Part shown: positions 27,685-50,511 of the stretch, piece by piece
Layout: every line of letters begins with the position of its first letter
How positions within the stretch are numbered: position 1 is the first letter of the stretch
NCBI GenBank assembly: GCA_965237675.1
Contig: OZ250150.1
Coordinates: forward strand, 3,008,001 to 3,072,000
DNA from: Candidatus Latescibacterota bacterium
GTDB lineage: Bacteria; Latescibacterota; UBA2968; GCA-2709665
Reading direction: 5' to 3'
Length of the DNA stretch: 64,000 nt
Notes under the pieces: model-generated
Database searches by the model: none
What the model was told of the DNA's origin: nothing
The model's input: only the letters and a program-made list of their open reading frames with translations
Translations under genes and position numbers: made by a program

Positions 27685-27731
27685 CCTTTTGAATATACCG
27701 CGCGCTACGGCGGGGGACAAACCCTAAAATG

Positions 27732-28165
27732 ACTGTGATTAACATGATTAAGCCAGGATTAACTGTGATTAAGGCAGATGCGGGGACAGGAGAAACGAGC
27801 GAAATCCGATTTTCCATGTGAGTCAATTAAACAAAGCCCGACAGGTCTGCGACTAATTCACGATTGACTTACATGGATGGACAGGATGAACAGGATGGAA
27901 ACCATGAACTGCAAGACCGGTGTCCGCTGATTAACTCTGCTGAAAAGAAGACTTCCCGGAGCCGTTGGGGACTCACGGGAAATTCTCAAACCAACACCGA
28001 CAAACGTGGATCTACAGGGTATACTGTCAATTAGCCATAGGTCACGCGACTAATGTATTTTGTGTGATTAGGTAAACCGGTTGGACACGGTGGACAGGGT
28101 GTAATCGCGATCTGCGCGACGTTTCGCTTCTTGGTCTTTATCCTGTCTATCGTGGGCATCCATGT
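27732..28165. repeat. cluster of 9-nt-periodic repeats (TGATTA.. family and CATGGAT..ACAGGAT family)
   Basis: ACTGTGATTAACATGATTAA at 27733; ACATGGATGGACAGGATGAACAGGAT at 27871; inverted copy 28140-28165. Confidence 0.8.
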
Positions 28166-28209
28166 AAAGTTGGGTTTTGCTCTCGATGGTGGGCGTCGTC
28201 AATCCAGGT

Positions 28210-28590
28210 TTACCAGATGGTCTGTGAATAGAACGCCTGGATTATTGAATCGGAGGTGACGATGGGGCAGGCGTTCAGGCTGGCGGTCGCGACAATGATC
28301 CGATCGGCAGGGTCGCGATGGTCCCAGTCGAGTTCGAGGCTTTTGATCCAGGTCCGCGTGCATACGGGCAGGATATCGATACGGTCGACTTGCTCCAGTT
28401 TATCCGTGAATTCCTGAATCGAAACCGGAATTAGTAGCTGTTCCTTCTTAACTTTAATACCGATTTCCCATATCGATATGGCGCTCAGGGCGATCCTGTC
28501 GGCGTCCGAGATCGCCTGTTCGGCAGCCTGAGACAGCCGATCCGGATCCAGTGTCCAGAACACAAGGGCCGAAGTGTCCAAAAGGACCAT
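28210..28590 (-). CDS. vapC: PIN-domain VapC toxin
   Basis: LLDTSALVFW, SAISIWEI, HRDPADRIIVAT, TSD. Confidence 0.92.
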   Translation of the reverse strand: MVLLDTSALVFWTLDPDRLSQAAEQAISDADRIALSAISIWEIGIKVKKEQLLIPVSIQEFTDKLEQVDRIDILPVCTRTWIKSLELDWDHRDPADRIIVATASLNACPIVTSDSIIQAFYSQTIW

Positions 28591-28820
28591 CACAGGTCAG
28601 TCCATTCATCGGTGGTTGGCAAATTGATGTCTTCGCGATAGATCGCGCCCCCTTGAATGGCGCCGAACACGTCTTCCACGGTCTTTTTTCGTTCAATAGG
28701 CTGAATGCGCAAAACCGGCCGCCTTCGATCCGTGACAATCAGTTCTTCGCCGGTTTTCTCAAGCTCGCGAAAGATGCGGAGCATATTGGCTTTCAACTTG
28801 CTCTTCGAAATGGATTGCAC
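28590..28820 (-). CDS. Phd/YefM-family antitoxin
   Basis: ISKSKLKAN..GEELIVTDRRRP; TGATG coupling to the toxin start. Confidence 0.88.
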   Translation of the reverse strand: MQSISKSKLKANMLRIFRELEKTGEELIVTDRRRPVLRIQPIERKKTVEDVFGAIQGGAIYREDINLPTTDEWTDL

Positions 28821-28841
28821 GTGTTCTCCTCGACTGAATTA

Positions 28842-28895
28842 AATGACTGTGGTTATAACTATAGTCATTATACTCAAAAACAAATATCCTGTCAA
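28842..28895 (-). promoter_or_regulatory. consensus sigma70 promoter plus palindromic TA operator
   Basis: TTGACA(28895-28890)-17 nt-TATAAT(28872-28867); inverted repeat AATGACT.T.GTTA/TAAC.A.AGTCATT at 28842-28869. Confidence 0.85.
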
Positions 28896-28900
28896 TAGAA

Positions 28901-29475
28901 CCGACAGGACGTGACTGTAATTACCGTGATAATTTCACATGGATATACAGGATGAACAGGATCTTCTTTGATTTAGGCATGGGTCACGCGACCACCGTGA
29001 GTCGTGTACACTCACTCGCGTAGCCGGAACTTGATCTCGGAGATTGAAGCCGTCTCGAGGAACGACTCCAATTCCTTCTTCAAGTTTTCCTTGGACTCGG
29101 CAATGGTTTTTCCCTGGCTCGCGATGTCCAACTCGGGGCAGAGAGCAACGTACCCATTGCCGACGCGCTCGATAATTGCCGTCAACTGCCTGCTCATCAC
29201 CGACTCCCGCATTTCCGATTCAAAGAATCAACTATGGATATACAGGATGCACGGGATAATACTGTGATTACCGTGATTAAACTATGATTGCGCTGATTAA
29301 GGCAACTGCGGGGACAGAGAACACGAGCGAAATCCGACTTGGCATCTGAAACACGGAAAAAAGCCTGTCAGTACTTTGATTAAGGTGAAATGTATGATTA
29401 CTGATTACCGTGATTAAGGCGCGTGGTCGGAAAAGGGCAACAGCGGAAATCCTGAGCATCATGTTAATCACAGTG
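28901..29475. repeat. second cluster of 9-nt-periodic repeats flanking hicB
   Basis: CATGGAT family at 28937 and 29234; TGATTA family at 28913, 29261, 29400, 29464; 50-bp segment 29295-29345 resembles 27767-27817. Confidence 0.75.
29012..29197 (-). CDS. hicB: HicB-family antitoxin, orphan and C-terminally degraded
   Basis: LTAIIER.G.GYVALCPELDIASQGKT..E...NL. Confidence 0.8.
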   Translation of the reverse strand: MSRQLTAIIERVGNGYVALCPELDIASQGKTIAESKENLKKELESFLETASISEIKFRLRE

Positions 29476-29485
29476 TCTGTGCTGT

Positions 29486-30109
29486 TCATCTATGTTTCTT
29501 GTCCTTTTTACGAGGATCGCCTGTCGATTGTTCCCATGATTTTGTGAAGGATTCGGGTTCGACCCCGAGCGCATCGGCCACGCGGTTGATATAGTTGAAA
29601 AAGCCGATGATCTGAACCGCGTCGTGGATGCCCTGATCGTCGAAGCCGTGCCCGCGCAAACCGTCTATATCGTCCGCCGTTGCAGCCCGCGGATCCAGGC
29701 TGAGCTTTTCCGCTAAGGCGCACAGTGCGCGGTCGGCGGGGGGCAGGTCGGCCCGGCGCCAGTCCGCGGCCAACTGATGCACCAGCCGGTCGGCCTCGTG
29801 GCCGTCTTCAACGCCGAAATCACTGGCGACCTCGGCACGGAGGTCGTGGGCGTGCGCGCGTATTCAGTACACGCAGTGATTCGTGGCTGATACCACAACG
29901 GCCAGCATCTCCCGCCGCGCGCGGCTGAGAGGGGAGGGGCCGTGCATCAGCACGCCATAGAAATCCAGCGAAGCCTTCATCGCGGGGGGGTTGGGGCTCA
30001 TGATAGAGACAATGCCCCAGATCCGTCCCGTGTGGGACATCGCGGCGTCGTATAGCTTCTTTAACAGGCCGGTGGCCTTATCTGGCGGGATGACGTCAAT
30101 AAAGGGCAT
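29486..30109 (-). CDS. AhpD/carboxymuconolactone decarboxylase-like selenoprotein (CxxU), copy 1
   Basis: Two in-frame ORFs joined by TGA at 29866-29864 in NHC-V-Y-U-IRAH; SECIS-like hairpin CGACCTC-CGTGCC-GAGGTCG follows; FNYINRVAD. Confidence 0.85.
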
Positions 30110-30174
30110 CTCGCGACCTCCTTCCCCACATGGATCAACATGGATTCGTCAACTTCGAAAACCCAAATCGACCT

Positions 30175-30300
30175 ACATGGATGGACAGGATGAACAGGAT
30201 GAAAACCGCAGGAAAAAACGAAAACAGAGAAAGCCACAAAAAGCACAAAAGACACAAAAAATGCGGCAAACCAAAACCGCTGAAAAAGGATGGATAGGAT
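30175..30300 (+). repeat. adjacent CATGGAT-family and CCACAAAAAG-family 9-nt-periodic repeats
   Basis: ACATGGATGGACAGGATGAACAGGAT 30175-30200; GCCACAAAAAGCACAAAAGACACAAAAA 30233-30260. Confidence 0.8.
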
Positions 30301-31475: not shown

Positions 31476-32577
31476 TAAATACCACGACGAAGCCATGGAA
31501 GCGGCTTTTTTCGCCGATCAAGAACGGCGTCGAGGAAACCAAAAGCGATCAGAGGAGTTGTTTGACCAGGCATTGGATTTGGAGCTCAAGGCCCTTGGTG
31601 GGATGTTGGAGCCGGTGGAGCCGACTTACTCGATACTACACCGTAGTGCAGGGTGGCTTGCTTTGGATTGCAACAAACCGCGACTGGCAGAACAATTAGC
31701 TAGCAAAGCCCTCGCTGGTGAGCCGGATTCGCAGATTGCGGAGGAACTGCGCGACCTGTTGGAGCAGATCAACTTTCGGCGTCACCTTGAACTAAGGGGA
31801 GTAACACTGGGAGAGGGCGAAATCCAGTTGAGTCTTTCCGGGCAGCATGTGGGTCTGGGTATGGTGAGTCAAGGCGAGTTTTTTGGGCGCGTGGAAAACT
31901 CATCAAAGATAATTCAACGTATCGTAGAACGCCGCAGCAACGAGCCATTCAGGGAAAGAGGGCGACCTAAGAAGGATATAGCGGAGAACTACGAACTGTT
32001 CGTTTCTACGCCAAGGGCGGCTAGTTTTGCCGTGACTTTGAAGTTAGGCCGGCCAACAGGGCAGCTATTTCTGCCAGGGGTATTAACCACAAATGACGTA
32101 CTGGATGAATTCATGGACTTAATGGAGATGGTAAGCCAATTCAGAGTTTCAGAGATTCAGAATCGTATCTCCGACCCTGCGTACTTCAGGAACTTCATTG
32201 GTCTTTCAAGGAAGATTGCCCCGGACGGGGAGCGGATCCGCCAGGTAGGTCTGACGTCACTGAGAAACGGCACGGAACGCTTCGTAGACGTTTCTACGCC
32301 CGCGTCTGAATTTCCGCCACTTCCAGTTCATGAAGAATTGAAAGAATTCGAAACCGAACCGGTCGAGTTGAGAGGGGTACTGCGATACGCAGACGCGACG
32401 AGCGATGCGAGAAACAGAATCAAGATCATCGGAGAAGGCAGAGAGGCACATATCATAGAAGTGCCCGATGGCATGATGAACGACATTGTACGCCCTTTGT
32501 GGGCTTCCCAGGTCAGGGTGAACGGTATACGAAAGGGATCACGCATTATACTGGAAGACATCTGGCCAGACGATTAG
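31462..32577 (+). CDS. hypothetical protein with helical (TPR-like) N-terminus
   Basis: 371-aa ORF coupled to the upstream gene; helical N-terminus HRSAGWLALDC..AEQL. Confidence 0.75.
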   Translation: MSAVDKYHDEAMEAAFFADQERRRGNQKRSEELFDQALDLELKALGGMLEPVEPTYSILHRSAGWLALDCNKPRLAEQLASKALAGEPDSQIAEELRDLLEQINFRRHLELRGVTLGEGEIQLSLSGQHVGLGMVSQGEFFGRVENSSKIIQRIVERRSNEPFRERGRPKKDIAENYELFVSTPRAASFAVTLKLGRPTGQLFLPGVLTTNDVLDEFMDLMEMVSQFRVSEIQNRISDPAYFRNFIGLSRKIAPDGERIRQVGLTSLRNGTERFVDVSTPASEFPPLPVHEELKEFETEPVELRGVLRYADATSDARNRIKIIGEGREAHIIEVPDGMMNDIVRPLWASQVRVNGIRKGSRIILEDIWPDD

Positions 32578-32672
32578 CCGGTGAATCGCGGGGCGGCTAT
32601 AAAAGGCGGCCGGAGAAAGTCGAAGCCAGGTCCTTTCCTTCATCGCTAGTAGCCGAGCGGGGGTCGAGCCAA

Positions 32673-33173
32673 ATGTCACTGGAGAGGATGGCTGAGGGGC
32701 TACTCGCAGATGCAGGCGTGGATTCCGCACCGGTTCACTTGGATCGGATCGCCAGAGACTTGGGCGTAAAGATCCAGTATGTCGATCTCGGGGAAGATTG
32801 CTCGGGGGTGCTCGTCCGTAGTGGGAACCGGGCTGTGATTGGTGTCAATGAGGATCACCATTCGAATCGGCAGCGGTTTAGCATCGCGCATGAAATCGCC
32901 CATTTCGTTCTGCACAGAGGGGATACGTACATAGGCAAGGAGTATCGTGTACAATTCCGCGACCTTGAGTCAGGTTCTGGTACAAAACGGGAAGAGATGG
33001 AGGCTAACGCATTTGCTGCAGCATTGCTTATGCCTGCCGCCTGGGTCAGGGATGCCTTCGCCCGGCAGCCTTTTGACTTGACCGAAGACGATGTGCTGGG
33101 GATGCTTGCTGAGAAGTTTGACGTGAGCACTCAATCAATGACGTACCGCCTTATGAAGCTGCGAATGATCTAA
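32673..33173 (+). CDS. ImmA/IrrE-family metallo-endopeptidase
   Basis: RQRFSIAHEIAH (HExxH), EMEANAFAAALLMP. Confidence 0.92.
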   Translation: MSLERMAEGLLADAGVDSAPVHLDRIARDLGVKIQYVDLGEDCSGVLVRSGNRAVIGVNEDHHSNRQRFSIAHEIAHFVLHRGDTYIGKEYRVQFRDLESGSGTKREEMEANAFAAALLMPAAWVRDAFARQPFDLTEDDVLGMLAEKFDVSTQSMTYRLMKLRMI

Positions 33174-33225
33174 AGCCGCCAAAAGCACCTCTGACCAATC
33201 TTGCTGAATCAAGCGAAGCCAGACG

Positions 33226-33523: not shown

Positions 33524-33774
33524 ATCCAGTGCATCCATGTTCCTCTTCTCATCATCTTGGCGGTCCGCCAATCACGGTAATCCCTAAGTCCTGCTAATCC
33601 CTCGTCCAGACGGTGTTTTTCCTTCCTTCCGCAGCACTTTCTTCTAATCAGTGTCCATCAGTAATCATCCGAATCACAATTTGGACAGTGATTAATTCAC
33701 ATAGATGGGCAGGATACACAGGATTTGGGGTTTTGTGTTCTTCATCCCGCCTATCCTATCCTGTTGATCCATGT
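33524..33774. repeat. 9-nt-periodic repeat cluster
   Basis: Inverted CATGGAT family 33524-33540; AATCAC family 33570-33680; facing pair 33699-33724 / 33744-33774. Confidence 0.7.
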
Positions 33775-34371
33775 TCCCCGTTTTTCTGTTTTTCCCATGC
33801 CTTCGTGAAGGATTCGGGTTCGACCCCGAGCGCATCGGCCACGCGGTTGATATAGTTGAAAAAGCCGATGATCTGAACCGCGTCGTGGATGCCCTGATCG
33901 TCGAAGCCGTGCCCGCGCAAACCGTCTATATCGTCCGCCGTTGCAGCCCGCGGATCCAGGTTGAGCTTTTCCGCGAAGGCGCACAGTGCGCGGTCGGCGG
34001 GGGGCAGGTCGGCCCGGCGCCAGTCCGCGGCCAACTGATGCACCAGCCGGTCGGCCTCGTGGCCGTCTTTAACGCCGAAATCCGTGGCGACCTCGGCACG
34101 GAGGTCGTGGGCATGCGCGCGAATTCAGTACACGCAGTGATTCGTGGCTGATACCACAACGGCCAGCATCTCCCGCCGCGCGCGGCTGAGAGGGGAGGGG
34201 CCGTGCATCAGCACGCCATAGAAATCCAGCGAAGCCTTCATGGCGGGGGGGGTTGGGGCTCATGATAGAGACAATACCCCAGATCCGTCCCGTGCGGGAC
34301 ATCGCGGCGTCATACAGCTTTTTTAACAGGCCAGTGGCCCTCTCCGGCGGGATGACGTCTATATGTGGCAT
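33756..34371 (-). pseudogene. AhpD-like CxxU selenoprotein, copy 2, with +1 frameshift in a G8 run
   Basis: Near-identical to 29486-30109; TGA at 34127-34125 with the same hairpin; G8 at 34245-34252 versus G7 in copy 1. Confidence 0.8.
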
Positions 34372-34777
34372 CACGGACCTCCATTCCAACAGGGATCAAC
34401 AGGGACAATTCAATCCGTAAAATCAAGCCAACTCACATGGATAGACAGGATGAGCAGGATGAAAACCACAAGAACGGGTCAAAACCAGTGCATGCGGATT
34501 GGCCGAGTTGCAAGACAACGGACGCCGGGCGCCGTTACGGGTTCACGTGGAATTTGCAATTCAAGATCAACAAACATGATTAGTCAGGATGAGTAAGAAA
34601 AAGCCCCAAACAACCCAACAAACGGATGGGGGATACGATGGAAGTACGAGAGCATCGAGTCGCGGGACATTTGCTGCAGCCATCCGGAAGAGTACAAAAG
34701 CGATTGCTGATCGACGAATCAGTCTGATTTGCGGGCTTTCGGCGGAGGTATTGTGCGCGGAGAGTATCTGCCCGGTA

Positions 34778-35416
34778 TCAAGTTGATACGCGACCCCATT
34801 GGTCTACTTCGTTAAGGTGGCAATTCTTGTATTTTCTGCCACTTCCGCAAGGACATCGGTCATTTCTACCGGCAGCCAAATTTGAAATATCTGCGATTTC
34901 CGTGATATACTGCCGAAACCCTTCTTCACCGTGCGCGTATTCATCCCAGAGATCACTTCGTGCAGCACTGATGCCGAATTTTTCGGTGTAAGATAGACGA
35001 AAAAAGAAGGGAATTATCAAGTGTGTAATAAAGGTTTCGATTCTGAGTTTTCGATCATGCGCAATTGTTATTCCCAAACAACAAGCACCATCTGATTCGT
35101 AAATGTGTAAATCGATTATGGGAACTTGACATTTTTTCGCTATTTCAGGATGCCTTCCTCCGATTTCATAAACCTTTGGCCAACCATTCAGATCCCTTGA
35201 ATCAGGATATAGACGAATTTCTATCTCAAATACATCCTGGATAACGGTGTGTTGACCGTCGGTGTCAGCAACATTGTCGATTATAAGTTTGCCTGACCCC
35301 GTCTCAAAATAGGCACAGAAGTCAAGCTCTCCCACTATTTTTTGAACTTTGCCCTTATATTGTAAGTTTGGGAAATGCGATTCTAACCATTGAATTTCTT
35401 TTTCATTCACCTTCAT
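34778..35416 (-). CDS. prokaryotic E2-like protein with SEC-C motif (CBASS accessory)
   Basis: WPKVYEIGGR...HIYESDGACCLG E2-like catalytic region; GRNDRCPCGSGRKYKNCH. Confidence 0.75.
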   Translation of the reverse strand: MKVNEKEIQWLESHFPNLQYKGKVQKIVGELDFCAYFETGSGKLIIDNVADTDGQHTVIQDVFEIEIRLYPDSRDLNGWPKVYEIGGRHPEIAKKCQVPIIDLHIYESDGACCLGITIAHDRKLRIETFITHLIIPFFFRLSYTEKFGISAARSDLWDEYAHGEEGFRQYITEIADISNLAAGRNDRCPCGSGRKYKNCHLNEVDQWGRVST

Positions 35417-35424
35417 TTCTCACA

Positions 35425-36366
35425 TTACCAGGCATAAGGTTTTCTAGGAATTACCGCTCCTGTCGAAGAAGCTGTGCTTTCTGTGAGTTCTCCGAATTTA
35501 TCACCGAACTGCTCTCTCCACTTTTTGACACTGGTATTATGATCAGTCGCTTCAAACGCTTCGTCCACCTTGCGGTTGTATGTATTAAATAAATCCCTAA
35601 AATGCCTGTATTTATCCTGATCCCAGTGCCTGGTGAAACTCTCTTCTGGCAAGACCGGATTATAGACTTCCGGCATGTCCGGATTGTCTTGCAGGAAGTC
35701 ATTTATCCGATTCGAAATCGTCTTCAAGGTGGTTGGAATATCCTTGAAGTCTTCACTGCCCTCGTCGTCATCGAACACACGCTCACCGATGAGTGTGGTC
35801 AAGAGGATTGATTTAATCGAGAAGTTTCCCTTATGATCTCTGAGGAATTTCAACAGTCTCGTAACCCTCTTTAGGTTTCCGTTTGTTATCCTTGTTTTTC
35901 CGTTGAACCAGTCCCGATAACCGGTGCCGTCAGTGATTTCAAATTCATTTTCCTTCCGATTGCAGATATATCGATATTCTCCATCCGTGACGCAGGGAAC
36001 AATATCCAAATGAAAATCGCCTGCATAGTCGATGTAAACGCACCTTGTCTTCCGATGTGATTTTTCCCGATATGTATCGTTTTGCCTGAGGCAATGGTAG
36101 ACTTCGTTTATGTATTCTTCAGGTTCTTTATCGGGATCGTATTCCATAAACAACAAAACGTCAGCATCATATTCACGGCCATTTACGGGTTTGATAATAG
36201 TCCTTAACGCATAAGAACCCTGTCGTTCGGTTTTTTCGTATGAGTCCAGGGATTTGCTAAGGTAATCAACTACCGCCGATGTGCTGCGATTCAACCTGTC
36301 GAGTCTTGTTTCGTTGAGATTTACCTCTTCGGCGAGGAAATCTTCGAAATATTTCTGGTGTTTCAT
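35425..36366 (-). CDS. cGAS/DncV-like nucleotidyltransferase (CD-NTase, SMODS)
   Basis: QGSYALRTIIKP...EYDAD (GS..DxD), KTRCV, FHLDIVP, NPV..E.F..W, W..QFG. Confidence 0.9.
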   Translation of the reverse strand: MKHQKYFEDFLAEEVNLNETRLDRLNRSTSAVVDYLSKSLDSYEKTERQGSYALRTIIKPVNGREYDADVLLFMEYDPDKEPEEYINEVYHCLRQNDTYREKSHRKTRCVYIDYAGDFHLDIVPCVTDGEYRYICNRKENEFEITDGTGYRDWFNGKTRITNGNLKRVTRLLKFLRDHKGNFSIKSILLTTLIGERVFDDDEGSEDFKDIPTTLKTISNRINDFLQDNPDMPEVYNPVLPEESFTRHWDQDKYRHFRDLFNTYNRKVDEAFEATDHNTSVKKWREQFGDKFGELTESTASSTGAVIPRKPYAW

Positions 36367-36424
36367 TTTTCTTCTCCTTTAATGTTTCGGGGACTAAGAA
36401 GCATGACTGTTTTTCTGTACTTTG

Positions 36425-37374
36425 CTAGAGCCCAAGGAATTCTCTTATCCTTTGGCCCCTGTGTGTAAAATCCTGATCAGCTTCTCGTGTCCAGTCATGA
36501 AGTTTCCGAGGGGTATCCATCGGAAGGGGTCTGTCCGATACGAAATTGATGCGCAGAAGTTGCTCTGGTTCCCTCATCTCCTGCGTTTGAAGCAACAAAC
36601 TTAACATGTTGTGAGAACTCTCACCTTGTAGATTGAAAATCAGATTGAGGAGTTTTTGGCGTTCCCAGCGGGTGGCCATTCCCCACCCCCAAAAAGCATT
36701 ATGAAGCCTTCCGGTGTTGAATTGATAGGTAGTTTTGCTTGTACCCGTACCAATCTAAGGTCACCTAAATCAACACCCAGACGGCGCTTCGCATCAATTG
36801 CTGCGACGAGGGCAGGATTATTTGCCCACAAACCGCCATCGATCAGTGGATAGTGATCCACCATATAGGGGTCGAAGTATGTAGGTGCAGAACAAGAAGC
36901 CATCACCGCGTCGCCGACTTGAACCTCAGGGTCGCGATGGAACCCAGGATCATACGCTGATTTAAACACGTGCACCCGACCGCCTCCAATATCAACGGAT
37001 GGGATGATTAGCGGTACTGAAATATCCTTCAAACGTGTGTTTCCAAACAGCTTAAAGAGGTAACGTCGCAAGACCTCATTGCTGTAACGACTCGCAAAGA
37101 GGCTAGTTAAACCGAATGGGATGAATTTGTCAATCCAACGTCGCTTAAAGATCAGATGAGCTTGTTCAGCGTAGAGATTGTATAGAGAATCTGCAGATCG
37201 ACCGTGAGCCAATCCAGCGGCGATGATAGAACCCGTGCTCGTGCCCGCAAACAAACCGAATTTGTCACACCATTCGACGCCCCATTCCTCCTCCATGCGC
37301 TTGAGAAGATACGCTGAGTATGCGCCTCTGAAACCACCCCCGTCAATAGACAGAATATAGAATTTTCCGCTCAA
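36425..37374 (-). pseudogene. capV: CapV-like patatin phospholipase, frameshifted near 36754
   Basis: DGGGFRG, GTSTG, SAPTYF, DGGLWANNP; IGTG and the C-terminus continue in another frame to 36425. Confidence 0.8.
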
Positions 37375-37437
37375 AACAGGAATTTCCTCCTTGTGACCTC
37401 GCGATGCCAGACACACAGTGCTTGCATTTAATCAAGT

Positions 37438-37464
37438 TCTGTTACCTCAATATCCGGTAACAGA
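37438..37464. promoter_or_regulatory. perfect 9-bp inverted repeat upstream of the CBASS operon (putative operator)
   Basis: TCTGTTACC-N9-GGTAACAGA. Confidence 0.55.
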
Positions 37465-37488
37465 TAACAAAAAATAACCAAAACACAA

Positions 37489-38100: not shown

Positions 38101-38110
38101 ATTGCGGTAT

Positions 38111-38146
38111 CAGATGAAATTTAAAAACATCTGCAAGAAATGTCAA
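38111..38146 (-). promoter_or_regulatory. sigma70 promoter with overlapping inverted repeat
   Basis: TTGACA(38146-38141)-17 nt-TAAATT(38123-38118); CAGATG-N11-CATCTG spans the -10 box. Confidence 0.7.
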
Positions 38147-38149
38147 GTC

Positions 38150-41949: not shown

Positions 41950-44328
41950 AGCCTTGCCATTTTCAAAACATGGTGTCACCTTTGACAATAACACATCGTT
42001 GTCCGCGAAGTAGGTGTAGCTGGCGCCAACCTGACCGAGTAATCTCTGCTCCTTAGCGACGAACGTGATCTGATTCTCGTTGAGATCCGACATCGGTACA
42101 AATGAGACTGTTGCATCCATTGATATCGACGCGAGTTCGGATTTGCGAGGATTGACAATACAAATCTCTCCAATTGGTACAAACGGGAATTCACTACTGA
42201 TCCTTGTTGTCTCCCGATACCTCTCCCCACTCAGACTGTATTCCCCACCTTCCTTGATTTTGGTTTTTTCGACGATGAGGGCCGCGCCTTGCTGGATGAG
42301 TTTCTGCAACACTGACTCATCGGGGGTGGGGGGCGTTTCGTCTTTATCCTGCCTATCCTGTCCATCCATGTTCCCCCTGCCATCCATGTATTCCTTCAAA
42401 GCCAGTTGCGTTTTCGGGAGGTCGTTCTTGTCAATCGGTCTGCGCTGAGCACCAAGGTCGAAGCCGTCGTTTTCGACCTTGAAAAAGGCGATGTAGTCCG
42501 TCCTTTTCGCCAGGGTTTTGTCGAGGATCAGGATGGATGTCTTGACGCCGGAGTAGGGATTGAACACACCCGCGGGAAGAGAGACCACGGCCACGAGGTA
42601 CTCCTCGACCAGCATCTTGCGCAACTGTTTATGGGCGTTCTGGCTCTGAAAGATGATACCCTCGGGCACGATGATCCCGGCGCGGCCGGCTGGCGTGAGA
42701 TGCTCGGCCATGTAGTCCACGAACAGCACTTCGCTGCGTTTCGATTTCACCGAAAAGTGGCTGTGCGGGCGGATGCCGCCCTTGGGCGACATGAACGGCG
42801 GATTGGCCAGAATCACTTCGGCGTACTCGTTCCAGCGGTCCTCGCTGGTGAGGGTGTCGTATTCGAAGATGTGCGGGTCGGCGAAGCCGTGCAGGTACAT
42901 GTTTACCAGCGACAGGCGCACCATGTCCGGCGAGATGTCGTAGCCCTTGAAGTTGGCCGCGAGTTTGGCCCGTTCGTCCGGCGTGAACGTGCTGTGTCCC
43001 TTGTCGTCGGTATTGGCCGCATGGATATGCTTGTACGACGAAATCAGAAACCCGGCGGTGCCGCAGGCCGGGTCGAGGATGGTTTCGTTCTTCCTGGGGT
43101 CGATGACGGCGACCATGAAGTCGATGATATGGCGGGGGGTTCGGAACTGTCCGGCGTCGCCCTGGGACCCGAGGACCGAGAGCAGGTACTCGAAGGCGTC
43201 GCCGAGCCGCTCTGAATGGTCATAGGTAAACTCGTCGATGACTTTCAGGAAGGCGCGGAGGGTCTCAGGGTCTCGATACGGGAGATAGGCGTTGTTGAAG
43301 ATGTCACGGAAAAGCGGCGGGATGCCGGGGTTCTCGGGCATCTTGACAATGGCCTCGGCGTAGCGATTCAGGACTTCGTGTCCGCCCAGGCCGGATCGCA
43401 TCAGCCTGGCCCAGCCGAACCGGGCGAAGTCACCGGCGAAGAACTTCCGCGCGCCTCCGAATTCCTCGCTACCGGCGTCCATGTCGTCCATGAACTTGTA
43501 GATCAACGCGATGGTAATCTGCTCGACCTGGCTCTTGGGATCGGGCACCTTTCCGACAAGGATGTCTCGAGCGGTATCGATACGCCGTTTCGTTTCGCTA
43601 TCAAGCATAGGTAGAAGATCCTTTTTGGCCACAAAAAGCACAAAATGCACAGAAGGGATAGAAGCCAACCGGCGTGTGAAGAAACGCCTGCAGTCCGTAA
43701 GGAATATTGGCGTTATTCGTAGCTATTCAGCAGTTCACGCAATAAGCCTTTTTGTGTTTTTGTGCCTTTTGTGGCAATTGTTTTTACGCGGCAAACTGGT
43801 TGAGCGGGATAATAACCACAAAAAGCACAGAACGCACAGAAATTAAGGAGCTGAATGGCAGGTGTCGAATCGACTCGATTCTGTAGTTATCACGGTGTTT
43901 TTCTTGGCTATATAGCCAGTTACTGGTTAATTCTTTTTTTGTGTTTTTGTGCCTTTTGTGGCAATTGTTTTTACACGGCAAACTGGTTGAGTAGGACGAT
44001 AGCCACAAAAAGCACAGACGGCACAGAAATTAAGGAGCTGAATGGCAGGTGTAGAATCGACTCGATTCTGTAGTCAGTACGGTGTTTCTCTTGGCTATAC
44101 ACCCTGTAACTGATTGGTTCTTTTTGTGTTTTTGTGCCTTTTGTGGCAATTGTTTTTGCGCGGCAAACTGGCTAAGCGGGACAATAACCACAAAAAGCAC
44201 AGAAAGCACAGAAAGTGAACATCAGCGTACAAACGGTCAGAATTCGATCGCCCTACGTGCCAATATAGAGTGAGACAACTCCCCATCCGAGTTTAGTGTA
44301 GGTTTGAGGGCGGAGAGGAGAGCAAGAG

Positions 44329-44797
44329 ATGATGAGTATGGACAACGGCCGACAGGAGCAGGTGTCGGTAGCAGTCCCGGAGCGGAGCGAAGGGACTGCT
44401 ACCGAGGCGCCCCGCCCTGACCCGGAAGTGCCAGAGAAGGCGAAGCGCCGGCGGTTCACTGCGCGGTACAAGCTTCGGGTCCTCCAAGAGGCGGAGGCGT
44501 GTCGAGAGCCGGGTCAGCTCGGCGCATTGCTGCGACGAGAGGGGCTATACTCCTCGCACCTGGCACAATGGCGTCGCGCCCGGCGTGAAAGGATCGTTGA
44601 AGGCGCTTTCCAAGCAGCGCGGTCCCAAGGGCCGTCGTCGCGAACCGGTGGCCGTCGAGAACGAGCAGCTACGCAAAGAAAACGCTCGGTTGCGACGACG
44701 CCTGGAGCAGGCGCAGATGGTCCTTGAGATCCAAAAAAAAGCCTCGGAGATCCTGGGCATCCCCCTGAACCCGCCGCCGAGCGACGACGACGCATGA
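44329..44797 (+). pseudogene. IS3-family OrfA with internal +1 frameshift
   Basis: RRRFTARYKL, LLRREGLYSSHL..WR, then GSLKAL...LEIQKKAS in another frame; extra A at 44588-44590. Confidence 0.75.
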
Positions 44798-45807
44798 AAG
44801 CCGCCGCCGAACAATTGGCCCCGACCGTCGGCTTGGCTTCGGCGTGCCGCGCGTTGGGTGTGGCTCGGGCCTCGGTCTACCGGCAGCGCAAGCCCCCTGT
44901 GTCGAGACGCCGTCCCTGTTGCCGGCCTTCGCCGCGTGCGCTGGCCCCGCCGGAGCGAGCCCACGTGCTGGACGTGCTGCACGAGGACCGCTTCGTAGAC
45001 CGAGCCCCGGCGGCAGTATACGCCATCCTGCTGGAGCAAGGACGGTATCTGTGCTCGATACGAACGATGTATCGCCTGCTCCACAATGCCAAAGAGGTGC
45101 ACGAGCGACGACGACAGCGGCGCCACCCGCATCGGGAACCGCCGCGCCTGGTGGCCACCGCCCCAAACCAGGTGTGGACTTGGGACATCACGCGCCTGCC
45201 GGGTCCGCGCAAGTGGGTGACCTATCCCCTCTATGTGGTGCTGGATCTGTTCTCGCGCTACGTCGTGGCTTGGATGGTGGCCACGTGCGAGAGCGCCACC
45301 CGGGCGCAGCGGTTAATCCACAGCGCCTGCCAAAAGCAGGACATCGAGCCCGGACAACTCACCCTGCACCAGGACCGGGGTGGGCCGATGACGGCTAAGA
45401 CGTTTTCGCAGTTGTTGATCGATCTGGACATCCTGGCCAGCTACTCGAGGCCGCGCGTGTCCGATGACAATCCGTACTCGGAAAGCCAATTCAAGACGCT
45501 TAAATACGCACCGACGTACCCGGGGCGCTTTTCCAGTACTCACAACGCGCGCACCTATTTCCAGACGTTTTTCCCCTGGTACAACACCCAACACCGTCAC
45601 AGTGGATTGGGGCTGCTCACACCGGACAAAGTGCACTACGGCCTGGCCGACGAGATTCAGACGGCACGACAGCACGTGCTCCACAAGGCCTTTGCAAACC
45701 ATCCTGAACGCTTCGTCAACGGCCCGCCTCGACCACCACGGGTTCCTCGTGCAGTCTGGATCAATCAGCCACCAAACTCCATCGAATGCGACCGTATGCG
45801 TCATTGA
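44794..45807 (+). CDS. IS3-family OrfB transposase (rve core)
   Basis: PNQVWTWDIT, LDLFSRY, HQDRG, DNPYSESQFKTLKY, YNTQHRH. Confidence 0.92.
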   Translation: MKAAAEQLAPTVGLASACRALGVARASVYRQRKPPVSRRRPCCRPSPRALAPPERAHVLDVLHEDRFVDRAPAAVYAILLEQGRYLCSIRTMYRLLHNAKEVHERRRQRRHPHREPPRLVATAPNQVWTWDITRLPGPRKWVTYPLYVVLDLFSRYVVAWMVATCESATRAQRLIHSACQKQDIEPGQLTLHQDRGGPMTAKTFSQLLIDLDILASYSRPRVSDDNPYSESQFKTLKYAPTYPGRFSSTHNARTYFQTFFPWYNTQHRHSGLGLLTPDKVHYGLADEIQTARQHVLHKAFANHPERFVNGPPRPPRVPRAVWINQPPNSIECDRMRH

Positions 45808-45874
45808 ATTCTCACGCGAGGTGTCTCATTCCTATTGACATGTTCCGTCGCGCCTTTTGTGGCTACGAAGCAAT

Positions 45875-46255
45875 TCACAGGATTAGCTTTTTTACCTGGA
45901 GCTTTGCGGCGCCGAAGTTGATGAGCATAGCGTCACGATGACCGGATGCGCGGAGATAGCCCAGCGTCTGTGCGATATGTTCCGGTGCCAAAGTCCTGGC
46001 AGCCTTAAGCTCAAGAACAAGGCAGTTTTCCACGAACAAATCGGCAAAGAAGCTGCCGAGGAGCGTACCGTCTTCATCGCGCACCTGTAGAGGCTTTTGC
46101 TGCTCGACAGAAAGGCCAATCTTACTCAAACGGTGGGCCATTCCATTCTCATACACCTTCTCCAGGTGACCATTCCGAAGATGGGTATGCAATTCAAAAG
46201 CCGTTTGCCGAACCTTATCACACAAATCTCGAACGCGCTGGTCGTCTCTTTTCAC
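45875..46255 (-). CDS. GxxExxY protein (PD-(D/E)XK-like nuclease fold)
   Basis: GHLEKVY motif, ADLFVE..LVLELKA, HIAQTLGYL, LINFG; GTG start at 46255. Confidence 0.92.
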   Translation of the reverse strand: MKRDDQRVRDLCDKVRQTAFELHTHLRNGHLEKVYENGMAHRLSKIGLSVEQQKPLQVRDEDGTLLGSFFADLFVENCLVLELKAARTLAPEHIAQTLGYLRASGHRDAMLINFGAAKLQVKKLIL

Positions 46256-47281
46256 TTTATAACCGATCAATTGGCCACAAAAAGCACAAAAGGCACCGAA
46301 AGTATAGAAGCCAAACGGCAGGTGCCGAAACAACGGGACTCAACATCCATTATCGGTGTCGGCGGTGGCCCATCATCAGTTTGGCCACAAAAAGCACAAA
46401 AGGTACAGAAATTAAATGGCTGAACAGCGGGTGTAGAATCGACTCCATTCTGTAGTCACTGCGGTGTTTTCCTAGGCTATACACCCTGTAACTGAATAGT
46501 TCCTTTTTGTGTTTTTGTGCCTTTTGTGGCCATTGCCTTTAAGCCGCGAACTGGCTGAACGGGAAAATAACCACAAAAAGCACAGAAGGCACAGAAATTA
46601 GAGAACTGAACGGCAGGTGTAGAACCGCCTCGATTCCCTAGCTAATACGGTGTTTTTCTAGGCCATTTGCCGGTTTTCGGGGTCGTTTCCTTTTGTGTTT
46701 TTGTGCCTTTTGTGGCCATTGATTTTATGCAGCAAACTGGTTCAGCGGGACAAAAAGCACAGAAGGCACAGAGGGTGCAGAATAGAAACGACATGTGTAG
46801 CAACGACTGCACTCGGTATCGACTATTGGTGTCATTCGCGGCTATTCAGCAGTTCACGGAATAGGCCTTTTTGCCTTTTGTGTTTTTGTGCCTTTTGTGG
46901 CCATTGTCTTTACACGGCAAACTGATTGAGCGGGACGACAACCACAAAAAGCACAGAAGGCACAGAAATTAAGGAGCTGAACGGCAGGTGTCGAATCGAC
47001 TCGATTCTGTAGTTATTACGCTGTTTTTCTTGGCTATACAGCCAGTAACTGGTTAATTCTTTTTTTTGTGTTTTTGTGCCTTTTGTGGCAATTGTTTTTA
47101 CGCGGCAAACTGGTTGAGCGGGATAATAACCACAAAAAGCACAGAACGCACAGAAGGTATAGAAGCTAAACGGCATGTGTAGAAACGACGGGATTCAGTA
47201 TCGACTATTGGTGTCATTCGTGGCTATTCATCCTTTCACAGAATAAGTATTTTTCTCTTGTGCCTTTTGTGGCAATCGATT

Positions 47282-49813
47282 CTATGCAGCAAACTGGTTC
47301 AAAGGTACGTAGTCTTTCACGTATTCGGGAACGAGGGTGCGGTATTTTTCCGGTACGGCCCCCAGGTCTTTCATTGAGAGAACCGGGCTCGTGGCCAGGT
47401 CGGTGAAGTGCCGGTTTTCGATGATGTGGCGGATCTGGTCGCTTGTGACGTACGCCTTGAAATAGGTCTTGATCGCGGGGATGGACTCGACCTCCTCGGG
47501 GGTGTAGTCGGCCACGAACTTCGCGAATTCCTCTTCCAGCATTTCGTCCCTGGATTTAAATCGCGGGATCAGCCCGAACACTTTCTCCAGAATCTCCCGC
47601 AGGGTGATGCGGCGGTCCACGGCCGCTGCTCGGCGCAGCTTTTCAAGGGTGTAGTACTCCTCGGGTCGGTCGAAGACCTCCTGGTTGACGTAGTCGATGA
47701 CCCGGTCCCAGTGACCGGCCTCCACGGCCTGGGCGATAGTGTCGTCCTTGCGCACGGCATCCTCGAATTTCTCGAAGAACATGCGGTCGATCTTCATCCC
47801 TTCCGAACCGATGGCCTCGACCTGGATCGAGGAGAGGATGTCCCTGCCCAGGTATTCGTAGGCGCCCGCGTCGGACCCGGGCTGTTCCCCGCCCCCTCTT
47901 TCATGGGCGTCTTTATAGACCACAGGCAAATTCAACACTTCGTCGTAGTTGAACTCGGTCTCGAAGTATTCGCAGCTGGCGAAGAAGTCGAACAGCTTGA
48001 ACGCGGTCTTATCGGGCTCGTCTACGCGTTCCGCCACGGCCGGATTGAGCAACTGCTCGAGGAAGTCGTGTTTCCGCGTGCCCCGCCCCTTGATCTGGAT
48101 GAAGTCGGTGGGGGAGAAGATGGGGCGGAACAGACCCAGATTCAGAATATCCGTGCAATCGTACCCGGTGGTCATCATGCCAACGGTCACACAGACCCGC
48201 GCTTTACATGTCCGATAGGAGGGGAGAAAGTTGCACGAGCCGAGCAGTTTATTGTTTGCAAAATTGATGGTTAGCTGCTGCGCGTGCGCAATCTGCGACG
48301 TCACCTGAACCGCAAAATCCGATTGATAGCGGTCAGGAAACATGACGTGGGCCATGGCGTTGAGGATCTGAGTCAATCTTGCCGCGTGGTTCTGGCTGAC
48401 TGCAAAGACGATGGACTTGCCGACTTCGCCGCTGACGGGGTCCCGCAGCGCATTCTCCAGGAAAGTCTTGCAGAAAAGCTGGTTGGTCGCTTCGGAATAG
48501 AAACGCTTCTCAAATTCACGCTGTTTGTAGGCCTCTTCCTGCTCTTCTCCCTCATCGTCCTTAAAAGAAACGACGAATCCCTGTTCCGAGAGCAAATCGG
48601 TCGTCACCTTCGTGCGTGCGTCCACAACCGTCGGATTGATCAGATAGCCATCTTTCACGCCGTCGAGCAGCGAGTACTTGAACGTGGGCTGCCCGCTCTC
48701 GCATCCAAACGTGCGGTAGGTATCCATCAGAAGCCGGCGTTCGGCGTCGCGCGGATCCCGCGTGGTGGGGTGCGTGTGGTCGAACCCCTTGAGGTAGTCG
48801 CGGGGGGTTGCGGTGAGGCCCAGCTTGTACCCCACGAAATAGTCGAATACGGACCGGGCATTGCCGCCGATGGACCGGTGCGCTTCGTCCGAGATGACGA
48901 GGTCGAAGTCGGTCGGTGAGAAAAGGGTCTGGTACTTGTTGTTGAACAGGAGCGATTGGACCGTGGTAACGACAATCTCCTCGGAGCGCCAGTCGTCGCG
49001 CCGCTCTTTGTAGACCACCGTCTGAAAGTCGGCCGAAAGCAGTGCAGCGAAGACCTTCCGTGCCTGCTCCTCGAGTTCCAGCCGGTCGACGAGGAACAGG
49101 ACGCGAGACGCGTTGCCGGAACGGAGAAAAAGCTTTATGACCGCGGCGGCGACAAGGGTCTTTCCCGTACCCGTGGCCATCTCGAACAGAAATCGGTCTC
49201 TGCCGTCTTTCACCGCCCGTTGCAGGGAGTGAACGGCTCTGAGTTGGTAATCACGGAGGAAGCGAAGGTTGTTGGCCTTGATGAAACCTGGGCGTTCGGT
49301 TTCGTTCTTCCACGCGGCTTCCGAGCGGTAATTCGGCCGCTGGGTGAGCACGATGTAGTCCTCGCCGACCCGCTCGTCAACCAGGCGCTGCGGGTTGGGC
49401 TGGACTCTGTTGTAGACGGTTACGGATTGCGGCGTCGGGAACGATGTGACAACGTACGGATTGCCTCGTTCGAGGTCCCAGAAGTAATGCAGGTTTCCGT
49501 TCGATAGGATAACGAAACGGCAGGCCTGCGAGCGGGCGTACTTTCGCGCCTGCTCCTTGCCCGCCAAGGGATCCTTGTCTTCCGACTTGGCCTCCAGGAC
49601 AATGAGGGGAAAACCTTTGCCGTCCAACAGCAGAAAATCGATACGACCAGACGTCCCCTCGAAATCGTCGCCCAATGCGTCGAGGTCCGCGTTTTTCAGG
49701 ACGACCTTGTGTTCGACGCGAATGTTGCCGGGCTTGCCTTCATCATCGAAGAAGCGCCACCCGGCCGCCTCGAGCATTTTATTGATCTTGATTCGCGCCG
49801 CTGCTTCATTCAT
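47282..49813 (-). CDS. hsdR: type I restriction enzyme subunit R
   Basis: IDFLL..LEAK..QARKYA nuclease, LRDYQ, MATGTGKT, DEAHRS, GLTATP, QIKGRGTR. Confidence 0.93.
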   Translation of the reverse strand: MNEAAARIKINKMLEAAGWRFFDDEGKPGNIRVEHKVVLKNADLDALGDDFEGTSGRIDFLLLDGKGFPLIVLEAKSEDKDPLAGKEQARKYARSQACRFVILSNGNLHYFWDLERGNPYVVTSFPTPQSVTVYNRVQPNPQRLVDERVGEDYIVLTQRPNYRSEAAWKNETERPGFIKANNLRFLRDYQLRAVHSLQRAVKDGRDRFLFEMATGTGKTLVAAAVIKLFLRSGNASRVLFLVDRLELEEQARKVFAALLSADFQTVVYKERRDDWRSEEIVVTTVQSLLFNNKYQTLFSPTDFDLVISDEAHRSIGGNARSVFDYFVGYKLGLTATPRDYLKGFDHTHPTTRDPRDAERRLLMDTYRTFGCESGQPTFKYSLLDGVKDGYLINPTVVDARTKVTTDLLSEQGFVVSFKDDEGEEQEEAYKQREFEKRFYSEATNQLFCKTFLENALRDPVSGEVGKSIVFAVSQNHAARLTQILNAMAHVMFPDRYQSDFAVQVTSQIAHAQQLTINFANNKLLGSCNFLPSYRTCKARVCVTVGMMTTGYDCTDILNLGLFRPIFSPTDFIQIKGRGTRKHDFLEQLLNPAVAERVDEPDKTAFKLFDFFASCEYFETEFNYDEVLNLPVVYKDAHERGGGEQPGSDAGAYEYLGRDILSSIQVEAIGSEGMKIDRMFFEKFEDAVRKDDTIAQAVEAGHWDRVIDYVNQEVFDRPEEYYTLEKLRRAAAVDRRITLREILEKVFGLIPRFKSRDEMLEEEFAKFVADYTPEEVESIPAIKTYFKAYVTSDQIRHIIENRHFTDLATSPVLSMKDLGAVPEKYRTLVPEYVKDYVPLNQFAA

Positions 49814-49849
49814 GGATGGGTTATCTCTTATTTCATTCAGAATCAACTA

Positions 49850-49967
49850 ACATGGATGGACAGGATATACTGTGATTACCGTGATTAGTGGGATTTAACT
49901 GTGATTCAAATGATTGGTGGGATTTGAGTGTTTCGCTTTTCATCCTGTATATCCTGTGTTTCCATGT
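49850..49967. repeat. facing pair of CATGGAT-family repeats enclosing TGATTA-family repeats
   Basis: ACATGGATGGACAGGAT 49850; ACTGTGATTACCGTGATTA 49869; ATCCTGTATATCCTGTGTTTCCATGT 49942-49967. Confidence 0.78.
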
Positions 49968-50215
49968 TCCCCCACTTTTCGCCGATATAGTTCCTCAGCA
50001 ATTTCAACCTCCACCTGGGTTACGTACACTTCCTCGTGCAAGCGTTGCTTAATCTCAGTTGCTGATGCCGTCTCCAGGAACAACTCCAACGCCTCCTTCA
50101 AATTACCCCTTGCTTCAGAAACGGTTGCACCCTGACTCGCAATGTCCACCTCAGGCCAGAGGGCGACGTATCCATCGCCTTCGCGTTCTATAATGGCTGT
50201 TAACTGTCTTGTCAT
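49940..50215 (-). CDS. hicB: HicB-family antitoxin, orphan
   Basis: MTRQLTAIIEREGDGYVAL.PEVDIASQG.T..EA..NLKEALEL; tail reads into the repeat. Confidence 0.85.
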   Translation of the reverse strand: MTRQLTAIIEREGDGYVALWPEVDIASQGATVSEARGNLKEALELFLETASATEIKQRLHEEVYVTQVEVEIAEELYRRKVGEHGNTGYTG

Positions 50216-50277
50216 CGCAAGCTCTTGTCGTGCGGATTTCGTAGCTTCACGCTTCCCTTAATCCTTCATTTTTCGCC

Positions 50278-50511
50278 CTTGCCTTTAATCACAGCCCATC
50301 ATTTTAATCACACGAATCACAGTCTGTTTCGGTTTTCATCCTGTCTATCCATGTTTCTCGCTTCTCCGCTTTTGCCTTTAATCACAGTCCATCATTTTAA
50401 TCATACAAATCACAGTCTGTTTCGGTTTTCATCCTGTCTATCCATGTTTCTCGCTTCTCCGCTTTTGCCTTTAATCACAGTCCATCATTTTAATCATACA
50501 AATCACAGTCT
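50278..50511. repeat. 93-bp tandem repeat, about 2.5 copies
   Basis: GCCTTTAATCACAG at 50281, 50374, 50467; unit combines AATCAC and ATCCTG..ATCCATGT motifs. Confidence 0.9.

Follow-up and report, generated by a model that had tools for sequence, protein, structure and literature searches.

Short palindromic repeats that separate variable stretches of bacterial DNA have been described in more than one form. In the account given in PMC1797815, the neisserial intergenic mosaic elements (NIME) consist of repeat sequence (RS) units flanked by dRS3 repeats, of the form ATTCCCN8GGGAAT, and on comparative evidence these repeats were proposed there to be recombinase binding sites that promote exchange. 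The repetitive extragenic palindromes (REP) mobilised by REP-associated tyrosine transposases (RAYT) occur (PMC3337134 and PMC3116915) as singlets, as inverted doublets with a spacer (REPIN) and in clusters. The subject here is a stretch of 64 kb (the window) from a Candidatus Latescibacterota genome (contig OZ250150.1, positions 3,008,001 to 3,072,000), in which a defence island of about 23 kb is interspersed with short-period repeats; the whole assembly that holds the window (G000; G numbers denote genomes throughout) comprises 5.6 Mb. A preliminary description of this DNA arrived at the same idea as had been put forward for Neisseria, namely that a shared repeat grammar drives the accretion of gene cassettes. 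The explanation preferred here, which as a whole we regard as fairly probable, is that the repeats are mobile elements resembling REPINs or miniature inverted-repeat transposable elements (MITEs) that have filled an insertion hotspot common to the genus.

All three of the repeat families that had been reported were found at the places given for them. The F1 consensus (CACAAAAAGCACAGAAGGCACAGAA) is matched 12 times in the window with up to three mismatches, against none in 100 shuffles, the F2 arm (CATGGATnnACAGGATnnACAGGAT) five times against an expectation of 0, and F3 six times against 0.02. An arm is built of two to four copies of a heptamer (ACAGGAT, CACARAA or GTGATTA) at a spacing of 9 nt, and when heptamers repeated exactly at that distance are ranked over the genome ACAGGAT (16), GCACAGA (11) and AATCACA (10) take the first three places, so that the period of 9 nt that these families have in common is genuine. 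The claim of three different families with such a period needs a correction, as F3 has a period of 9-11 nt and grades into F2. At the left end of the array the same four positions are occupied by GTGATTA units in some species and by CAGGATTA units in others, so that F3 is not independent of F2; the block in G000 has one CAGGATTAA among its four units. F1 forms part of 187-bp tandem units (43748-44214 and 46385-47189). Within the window the repeats are confined to 27.7-50.5 kb: a hidden Markov model (HMM) built from 267 F2 arms and searched with nhmmer gave 14 arms at E < 0.01, every one within 27866-50450 and none in the flanks, and pattern matches (24 for F1, 19 for F2 and 4 for F3) all lie inside 27736-50431. 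When we set the annotated modules beside the arms, 12 of 15 module junctions proved to carry a repeat, the junctions without one being 30581/30939, 32577 and 45847/45875, which agrees with the statement that repeats occur at nearly every junction, and the nesting at 30175-30260, 49850-49967 and 50278-50511 is as it had been described. The G+C content of the island is 0.42-0.60 compared with 0.58-0.65 in its flanks. No Rfam family reached its gathering score in the window, and a literature search with motif strings and keywords, with subscription journals and supplementary files outside its scope, returned no relevant paper on these motifs.

The interval that holds the repeats is a genus-wide insertion hotspot with the same flanks and different defence cargo. 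Both flanks were located in 14 of 14 related species of the genus, on separate contigs in G005 and G007, and the comparison that had been suggested, of the interval between the NUDIX gene and the open reading frame (ORF) labelled lptE (a label for which Pfam and NCBIfam offered no family match), revealed empty as well as filled states. It is empty in three of five genomes of sister genera, where the matched flanks lie 16 nt (G019), 103 nt (G015) and 140 nt (G016) apart; in G017 and G020, also of sister genera, about 4 kb of other DNA occupies the site. It is filled in 12 genomes of the genus, with lengths by reported coordinates of 3.2 kb (G011), 3.3 kb (G003), 3.9 kb (G004), 4.0 kb (G006), 4.7 kb (G002), 6.2 kb (G014), 6.5 kb (G009), 8.0 kb (G010), 16.6 kb (G012), 19.2 kb (G013), 26.1 kb (G001) and 27.9 kb (G008). 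The array starts immediately 3' of the stop codon of the upstream gene; its left end is the four-repeat block in 13 of 13 arrays, and in 12 of the 13 an F2(-) arm, situated about 38 nt from the stop codon, forms its right end, with between 6 and 26 F2 arms per array at E<=0.05. The backbone consists of small genes with F2 arms between them, whilst the defence cargo differs by species. Among the arrays of 12 relatives the CMD-family gene is present in all 12, the PIN/Phd pair in 11 and the two small UPF0150/HicB-like ORFs in 9 and 8, compared with 4 of 12 for hsdM and hsdR. Species-specific cargo includes SIR2-domain proteins, Schlafen/AlbA_2, DUF3644, FRG-TPR and AbiEii-like ATPases, together with a group II intron and insertion sequence (IS) elements, an IS21-type pair among them. 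The 4-kb insert of G017, at the same NUDIX site (L210), contains CACGGAA/CACGAAG arms with a 9-10-nt period and inverted TTGCAAA 7-nt arrays (2700-2950 and 4200-4340), so that this hotspot also harbours inverted arrays of short period that differ in sequence. The segment 29526-32582 is 96% identical to G008 in a backbone that is otherwise about 85-88% identical, which suggests a recent exchange between species; its left end is that of a duplication of the CMD-family gene.

The idea of a grammar private to this locus did not survive a genome-wide search, since the families are dispersed over the genome and independently distributed; their absence from flanking core DNA holds for the window and not for the rest of the chromosome. 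Simple patterns found 69 sites for F1 (24 in the window), 69 for F2 (19) and 10 for F3 (4) in the 5.6-Mb assembly, and the HMM found 37 F2 arms in 21 clusters. The island, which makes up 0.4% of the genome, has 10 F2 occurrences against 0.15 expected. F1 has about 20 loci outside it, in the form of hairpin units of about 140 bp and junction units, and F2 there heads an intergenic element of about 240 nt with some 13 copies; at two other loci the arms go with small variable genes. The sole other F3 cluster in the genome (L147, G000:C1:1583019-1589230) adjoins a PDDEXK_3 gene (1588892-1589230) and tandem units of about 100 bp. At several loci (G000:C1:2047596-2050585, 1467997 and 4710813) highly similar multi-copy IS elements, with up to about 20 copies at 99.9% identity, are placed inside F1 or F2 arms at a distance of 245-976 nt, and IS insertions seem to gather near arms.

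Outside the genus the distribution of the arms is wide and patchy. The pattern CATGGATNNACAGGATNNNCAGGAT, with 20 fixed bases and by our arithmetic about one chance match expected in 596 Gb, is present in no fewer than 112 stretches spread over many phyla; among the matches listed, the record titles name Latescibacterota, Dehalococcoidia, other Chloroflexota, Terriglobia, Pyrinomonadaceae, Opitutales, Kiritimatiellae, Pirellula, Gammaproteobacteria, Burkholderiaceae, Nitrospirae, Gemmatimonadota, Armatimonadota, Hydrogenedentota, Sumerlaeota and others. The numbers of F2 arms in five complete genomes from other phyla are 28, 140, 60, 4 and 14, with no match to the reversed pattern, which served as a control and gave 0 in 46 of 46 genomes searched. 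Many pairs of the 140 arms in the Terriglobia genome (G042) are exactly 125 nt apart and form uniform elements of 150 bp, and the dominant spacer variant differs from genome to genome. F1-like arms (CCACAAAAAGCACAAAAG..., CACAGAG..., CACGAAG...) number 11 in the listed 112 loci, where our arithmetic gives about 0.001 as the expectation. A survey of 40 related genomes, in genera g1 (the genus of G000) to g9, showed F2 in 14/14 genomes of g1, 1/2 of g2, 0/5 of g3-g5, 1/16 of g6 and 0/3 of g7-g9; the figures for F1 were 13/14, 0/2, 0/5, 15/16 and 0/3, respectively. Six viral contigs carry F2 arms. One phage fragment with portal, terminase and coat genes (L168, 4778-5482) has them flanking a 143-aa ORF that belongs to no known family and is situated between portal and terminase.

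The elements vary between related genomes in their presence at orthologous sites. The copy of the F2-headed 240-nt element at G000:5299452 lies within an insertion of about 440 nt that is missing in five of five relatives, with copies at other places in their genomes. G012 has the copy at 971555 too; of the remaining four relatives none has an orthologous stretch that aligned to the element, there being too little room for it in G002 (45 nt) and 180, 366 and 381 nt of unaligned DNA in G014, G008 and G009. Such insertion polymorphism between related genomes is a mark of MITEs, and adjacent (+,-) pairs of F2 arms also have the form of terminal inverted repeats around a short non-coding segment. 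Equally, the arms behave as REPs and REPINs do, being short extragenic palindromes that occur as inverted doublets and in clusters, with many copies per genome; an inverted partner was found within 200 nt for 55 of 144 arms (among the matches listed). In F2 the arm alone is conserved and its outer edge is sharp (WWT[T/G]AA|CATGGAT), whilst the two spacer bases of each 9-mer vary and do not match between paired arms. Because of the sharp outer edge and of the 2-nt spacers that do not co-vary between arms, the arms would be phased binding sites for a protein rather than strands of an RNA helix.

The ends of rearrangements cluster near the arms. When the two CMD-family copies are aligned, near-identity begins at 29528/33789 and stops at the inner edge of an F2(+) arm (30208/34468), past which the sequences are unrelated; the copies flank a 3.4-kb insert, and G008 has a single copy. 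Public contigs of run X3 show a main strain, at a depth of about 77 and with about 1.3% divergence, in which 34471 is joined to 49999 (side 43, with support from depth), 5 nt from the F2 arm at the edge of the second CMD copy. This strain therefore lacks both the cyclic-oligonucleotide-based anti-phage signalling system (CBASS) and the type I restriction-modification system, which are kept by a minor strain (depth 3-11) identical to the window. Copy-number variants join 50278 to 50465 (side 123) in the 93-bp array and 46304 to 47069 in an F1 array. Nine of the 15 listed joints lie at or beside an arm, mostly with short sides that may come from other repeat copies, and only 34471 to 49999 and 50278 to 50465 are counted as reasonably firm, joints with sides of 23-43 nt being possibly derived from other copies or organisms. 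Of the 449 collapsed alignment breakpoints counted over 13 arrays, 129 are no more than 10 nt away from an F1 or F2 arm, compared with 7% of random positions and 12% of random intergenic ones, and these alignment ends are not independent of one another. The coincidence of breakpoints with repeats that had been predicted is thus present in the data, and the CMD duplication and the strain deletion end at the same F2 arm, but the enrichment is confounded: conserved arms in diverged spacers attract alignment ends, and short metagenome contigs break at repeats.

A history consistent with these observations may be proposed. In the sister genera the upstream gene, of 208 aa, and the NUDIX gene are only about 16-140 nt apart, and this would represent the ancestral spacer. 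In the ancestor of the genus an element with inverted arms of CAGGAT type would have inserted into it, and the array would later have been enlarged as more DNA was inserted, deleted and exchanged; the repeats probably founded the hotspot. The 9-nt-periodic repeats are envisaged as the arms of small, non-coding, hairpin-forming mobile elements whose families may spread horizontally and amplify within genomes, and which would pile up in the hotspot through the tolerance of insertions there and a tendency to land side by side. Their role in accretion is most likely secondary: they may supply scattered stretches of homology, hairpins and possibly sites bound by protein, where incoming DNA was joined or lost, with IS elements and homologous recombination between duplicated backbone genes presumably contributing as well. 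A promoting effect of the repeats on accretion is plausible and finds some support. What stands of the claim that they drive it is a real accretion site, with repeats at most junctions and shared breakpoint edges; causation does not follow from these, no enzyme was found, and the orientation of the arms is not that of cassettes.

A number of findings weigh against the interpretation of the repeats as MITE- or REPIN-like elements with a part in the growth of the island. The 20-base motif is constant across phyla, whilst MITEs and REPs are normally lineage-specific, and this constancy might reflect a conserved function instead. No target-site duplication was clearly readable: the flanks of 59 pairs are AT-rich (TTAA-like) and inverted rather than direct, and the empty-site alignment was too diverged for one to be read. 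As many as 89 of 144 arms, among the matches listed, are solo, with no partner within 200 nt. Some module borders, such as 32577-32585, are free of repeats. Of 23 loci with a Y1 (RAYT) transposase gene (3 in G000, 20 in other F2-bearing genomes) not one lies within 1.5 kb of an arm, and G041 and G045, two of the five F2-bearing genomes of other phyla, carry arms with no Y1 match. There is no conserved neighbour gene across the listed 112 cross-phylum loci, the biggest clusters comprising 6 loci, and in G000 no IS has the arms as its termini. As to a causal role for the arms, IS elements, homologous recombination between duplicated genes and tolerance of junk DNA can explain much of the pattern.

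Several candidates for a mobilising partner, or for another role of the arm, were considered and rejected. The link to RAYT was rejected in view of the arm-free Y1 loci and the Y1-less carriers; two Y1-transposase genes in G000 (L002 and L003, G000:C1:1531597-1534821 and 1675651-1678875), which share 89% identity over 754 nt and are flanked by other repeat families with dozens of copies, may belong to a separate REP/RAYT system. The PDDEXK_3 nuclease is a recurrent cargo, but it is missing from F2-bearing G003 and G009 and present in many F2-free genomes. Distant arm pairs enclosed ordinary genes or unrelated IS elements only, and no autonomous element with the same termini was found in G000 or among the listed 112 loci, the other genomes having been searched less than exhaustively. 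The notion that F2 provides a start codon which travels with the arm was discarded as well: there is an ATG GAT within the arm, from which hsdS and one PDDEXK_3 gene continue, but ORFs of at least 100 aa after the F2 ATG are hardly commoner in frame 0 than in frame 1 (19 vs 12, 4 vs 1 and 10 vs 5). Finally, a model of nested transposons would fit the 14 arms of the window, which are balanced, but at one threshold over 13 arrays, in which the orientation strings are mixed, only that of G003 is balanced and that of G000 is not.

The idea of the preliminary description, that the arms are sites of a dedicated site-specific recombination (resembling integron attC sites or the neisserial dRS3 repeats) by an enzyme encoded elsewhere, which captures and shuffles cassettes, appears unlikely. 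In its favour, the small backbone genes all lie on one strand with arms between them, the CMD gene was duplicated together with its arms as a unit whose end coincides exactly with the edge of an arm, the CBASS module is bracketed by an inverted pair of arms (34430 and 39208), and in an unrelated genome (L123) a PDDEXK_3 gene sits exactly between inverted arms. Strain variants join at arms, and the outer flank consensus WWT(T/G)AAC partly resembles the R'' core of attC, RYYYAAC. However, the best match to the integron integrase model TIGR02249 in G000 scored 111.7 + 103.7 bits against a cut-off of 265, none exceeded it in five F2-bearing genomes of other phyla, and there are no arms near the partial matches; this enzyme was rejected as the partner. 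The orientation of the arms is mixed, and a single array of the 13 nests cleanly; of 57 adjacent (+,-) pairs, among the matches listed, 55 enclose 2-233 nt and most pairs hold no gene; single arms are scattered over the chromosome beside ordinary genes; and the taxonomic distributions of F1 and F2 differ.

A bolder form of the same thought, to which we attach a rather low probability, would make the heptamer arms (ACAGGAT, CACARAA, CACGAAG, GTGATTA and others) the sites of an undescribed family of transposases or recombinases that crosses phyla. Their loops would carry genes, and nested insertion at arm edges would build defence islands that have no integrase, a mode of gene capture parallel to integrons and operating in many uncultured phyla.

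It is improbable that the arms are instead cis-acting expression signals (operators, promoters, bidirectional terminators or hairpins that stabilise RNA) which occur at junctions merely as these are intergenic. Arms are often found 20-120 nt upstream of start codons with the outer edge toward the gene, and a pair of arms is able to form a long hairpin with T-rich flanks behind it. Ahead of the Phd/PIN pair, on its upstream side, there is a 12/12 match to the sigma-70 consensus (TTGACA, 17 nt, TATAAT; 28895-28867, minus strand), the -35 box of which overlaps a degenerate ACAGGAT unit. Contigs from an RNA library (run X21) cover solely the two IS elements and loose ends with single F1 and F2 arms (42341, 42372 and 46503); carry-over of DNA could account for them, contigs cannot show where transcripts start or end, and the parts without cover are uninformative. 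Against this, promoter-like and terminator-like sites show no excess over shuffles (6 vs 6.5, 9 vs 7.2, 2 vs 3.3 and 7 vs 8.8), on which ground a promoter or terminator function was rejected; the orientation of arms to neighbouring genes is mixed, at both 5' and 3' ends, and they are patchy in sister genera. The independent variation of the spacer bases, the gain or loss of arms at orthologous sites whose flanking genes have not moved and the want of an Rfam match are further points on that side.

That the island is a decayed Tn7- or Mu-style transposon downstream of a conserved gene, with end repeats as transposase-binding sites and internal copies as debris, is very improbable, for all that the array begins right after a stop codon as in Tn7-like elements, which often carry defence cargo, and that its extremes in G000 are inverted repeats of about 45 bp starting ACTGTGATT with three or four short repeats each: a scan of ORFs in G000 and four relatives brought up no TnsA/B/C-like genes, the sole match to rve plus Mu-transposase-C being an IstA-like gene of IS21 type in G013, the right end is an F2 arm and not an F3 block in 12 of 13 arrays, no 5-bp duplication was seen, and the same arms occur as 60-300-bp elements throughout this and other genomes.

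The features of the island are listed in the table. Among the 41 ORFs of the island and flanks that were scanned none matched a tyrosine or serine recombinase family, and the only tRNA of the window lies at 9339-9425, away from the island, both of which agree with the description of an island that has no such recombinase and no tRNA attachment site; it does, however, contain two IS elements with DDE transposases. At the junction of hsdM and hsdS (41914-43668, minus strand) a single open frame runs through an F2 arm (...MDGRGNMDGQDRQD...) until the IS cuts it, the translation giving HsdM, then MDGQDRQD and then an HsdS-like N-terminus, and this arm is conserved in G012, G013, G001 and G008. The patatin effector of the CBASS module (36425-37416, minus strand) is short, matching only positions 5-212 of a profile of 331, and has an 84-aa ORF downstream of it; at full depth, 10 extra bases stand behind 36753 in the contigs of run X1, and the copy in the window may be frameshifted relative to the population. 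Each copy of the CMD-family gene (29486-30109 and 33789-34389) consists of two ORFs and has the look of a pseudogene, yet the gene is retained in the arrays of the relatives.

Features of the island and its left flank, with positions in the window, strand and supporting evidence
Feature	Position	Strand	Evidence
NUDIX gene, conserved left flank	27223-27720	-	Pfam NUDIX E 4e-15; aligned in 14/14 genus genomes and in sister genera
Left end of array: four F3/F2-type heptamers (GTGATTA / CAGGATTA) at 9-11 nt spacing, with conserved tail of ~50 nt	27732-27825	+	
Inverted-arm element of ~300 bp: F2(+) 27866-27902, degenerate F2(-) 28134-28170	27866-28170		nhmmer E 8e-11; split degenerate arm 0.05/0.32
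PIN-domain toxin (28210-28593) and Phd/YefM-like antitoxin (28590-28820)	28210-28820	-	PIN E 1e-18; PhdYeFM E 1e-5, below family cut-off
F3-like repeats, then F2(+) arm	28916-28962	+	Arm E 8e-9
Small UPF0150/HicB-like ORF, weak assignment	29012-29212	-	UPF0150 E 0.035, below cut-off
F2(+) arm, then two F3 blocks	29234-29417	+	
CMD-family gene, copy 1, split in two ORFs	29486-30109	-	CMD E 8e-6
F2(+) arm, then F1(+) arm after 30 nt	30171-30259	+	
CapP-like M78 peptidase	32499-33173	+	Peptidase_M78 E 3e-24; PADLOC capP E 5e-38
F2(+)/F2(-) hairpin element	33696-33776		nhmmer E 0.003 and 0.001
CMD-family gene, copy 2, with F2(+) arm at 34430-34466; duplicate of 29528-30208	33789-34468	-	
CBASS-type module: E2-like, cyclase, patatin effector, wHTH protein, 292-aa ORF	34778-39028	-	SMODS E 4e-31; Patatin E 2e-31; PADLOC Cyclase E 5e-121, Effector E 8e-69, E2 E 3e-25
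F2(-) arm, inverted partner of the arm at 34430; the pair brackets the CBASS module	39208-39241	-	nhmmer E 1e-9
hsdS, 3' part	39230-40075	-	Methylase_S E 3e-16
IS element with DUF772 transposase, interrupts hsdS	40133-41950	+	Multi-copy in genome; site empty in G008
F2(-) arm at hsdM/hsdS junction, read through in frame	42340-42372	-	nhmmer E 7e-10
hsdM	42373-43668	-	N6_Mtase E 4e-49
F1 array 1: 187-bp units of F1(+)...F1(-) hairpin and 59-nt linker	43630-44215		
IS3-family element	44248-45847	+	rve E 3e-20; seven genome copies
PDDEXK_3 (GxxExxY) nuclease gene, embedded in F1 arrays	45875-46333	-	PDDEXK_3 E 9e-29
F1 array 2: 4.3 units of 186 bp	46276-47189		
hsdR	47282-49846	-	ResIII E 4e-37; HSDR_N
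Composite element: F2(+), four F3 repeats, F2(-)	49844-49968		
Second small UPF0150/HicB-like ORF, weak assignment	49940-50215	-	E 0.025, below cut-off
Right end of array: 93-bp F3(-)/F2(-) unit in 2.5 copies, up to stop codon of right-flank gene	50279-50511	-	

Defence islands without an integrase are common and the route by which they are assembled is an open question, to which the present locus contributes a series of empty site, minimal backbone and filled states in which the edges of repeats coincide with the ends of several independent rearrangements. The F2 arm is found across distant phyla and on a phage contig yet is missing in sister genera, which implies frequent transfer between phyla and a protein partner. 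If that partner were a new mobilising enzyme, the arms would define a new family of mobile elements with a wide ecological reach; if not, they would be one more system of the REP/NIME kind.

The locus shares features with each of several known systems. Integron attC sites, and clusters of attC sites lacking an integrase (CALIN), were reportedly treated by Cury et al. in 2016. Like these, the arms are imperfect palindromes between small co-oriented genes, often of toxin-antitoxin type, with no integrase nearby; unlike them, they are long, conserved in sequence rather than structure, of mixed orientation and mostly gene-free, and G000 has no IntI over the cut-off. Integrase-less defence hotspots between core genes are known from work on Pseudomonas and E. 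coli. With these the locus has in common constant flanks, variable defence cargo and the lack of an integrase or tRNA, and it differs in its conserved internal backbone and its dense mobile palindromic repeats. MITEs such as the Correia elements resemble the elements described here in their terminal inverted repeats, length (60-300 bp), non-coding nature, presence/absence polymorphism and families of uniform length (150 bp in G042), but no autonomous partner or target-site duplication was found here and there are many solo arms and tandem arrays. REPs and REPINs are likewise non-coding, multi-copy and amplifying within the genome as singlets, inverted doublets and clusters; the arms of this locus, in contrast, flank no Y1 (RAYT) gene, two of their carriers being free of Y1, they are made of phased heptamers and the same sequence recurs in many phyla. 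Compared with the dRS3 repeats, the arms are unrelated in sequence, 25-35 nt in length with a 9-nt internal period, spread across phyla and not linked to a phage recombinase. Nevertheless, in both cases short inverted repeats separate variable spacers in arrays of dynamic length, mixed with other repeats and IS elements, and lie beside exchangeable genes, restriction-modification systems included, between conserved flanks. The neisserial dRS3/NIME arrays, with their minimal mobile elements, are the closest functional analogues of the repeats.

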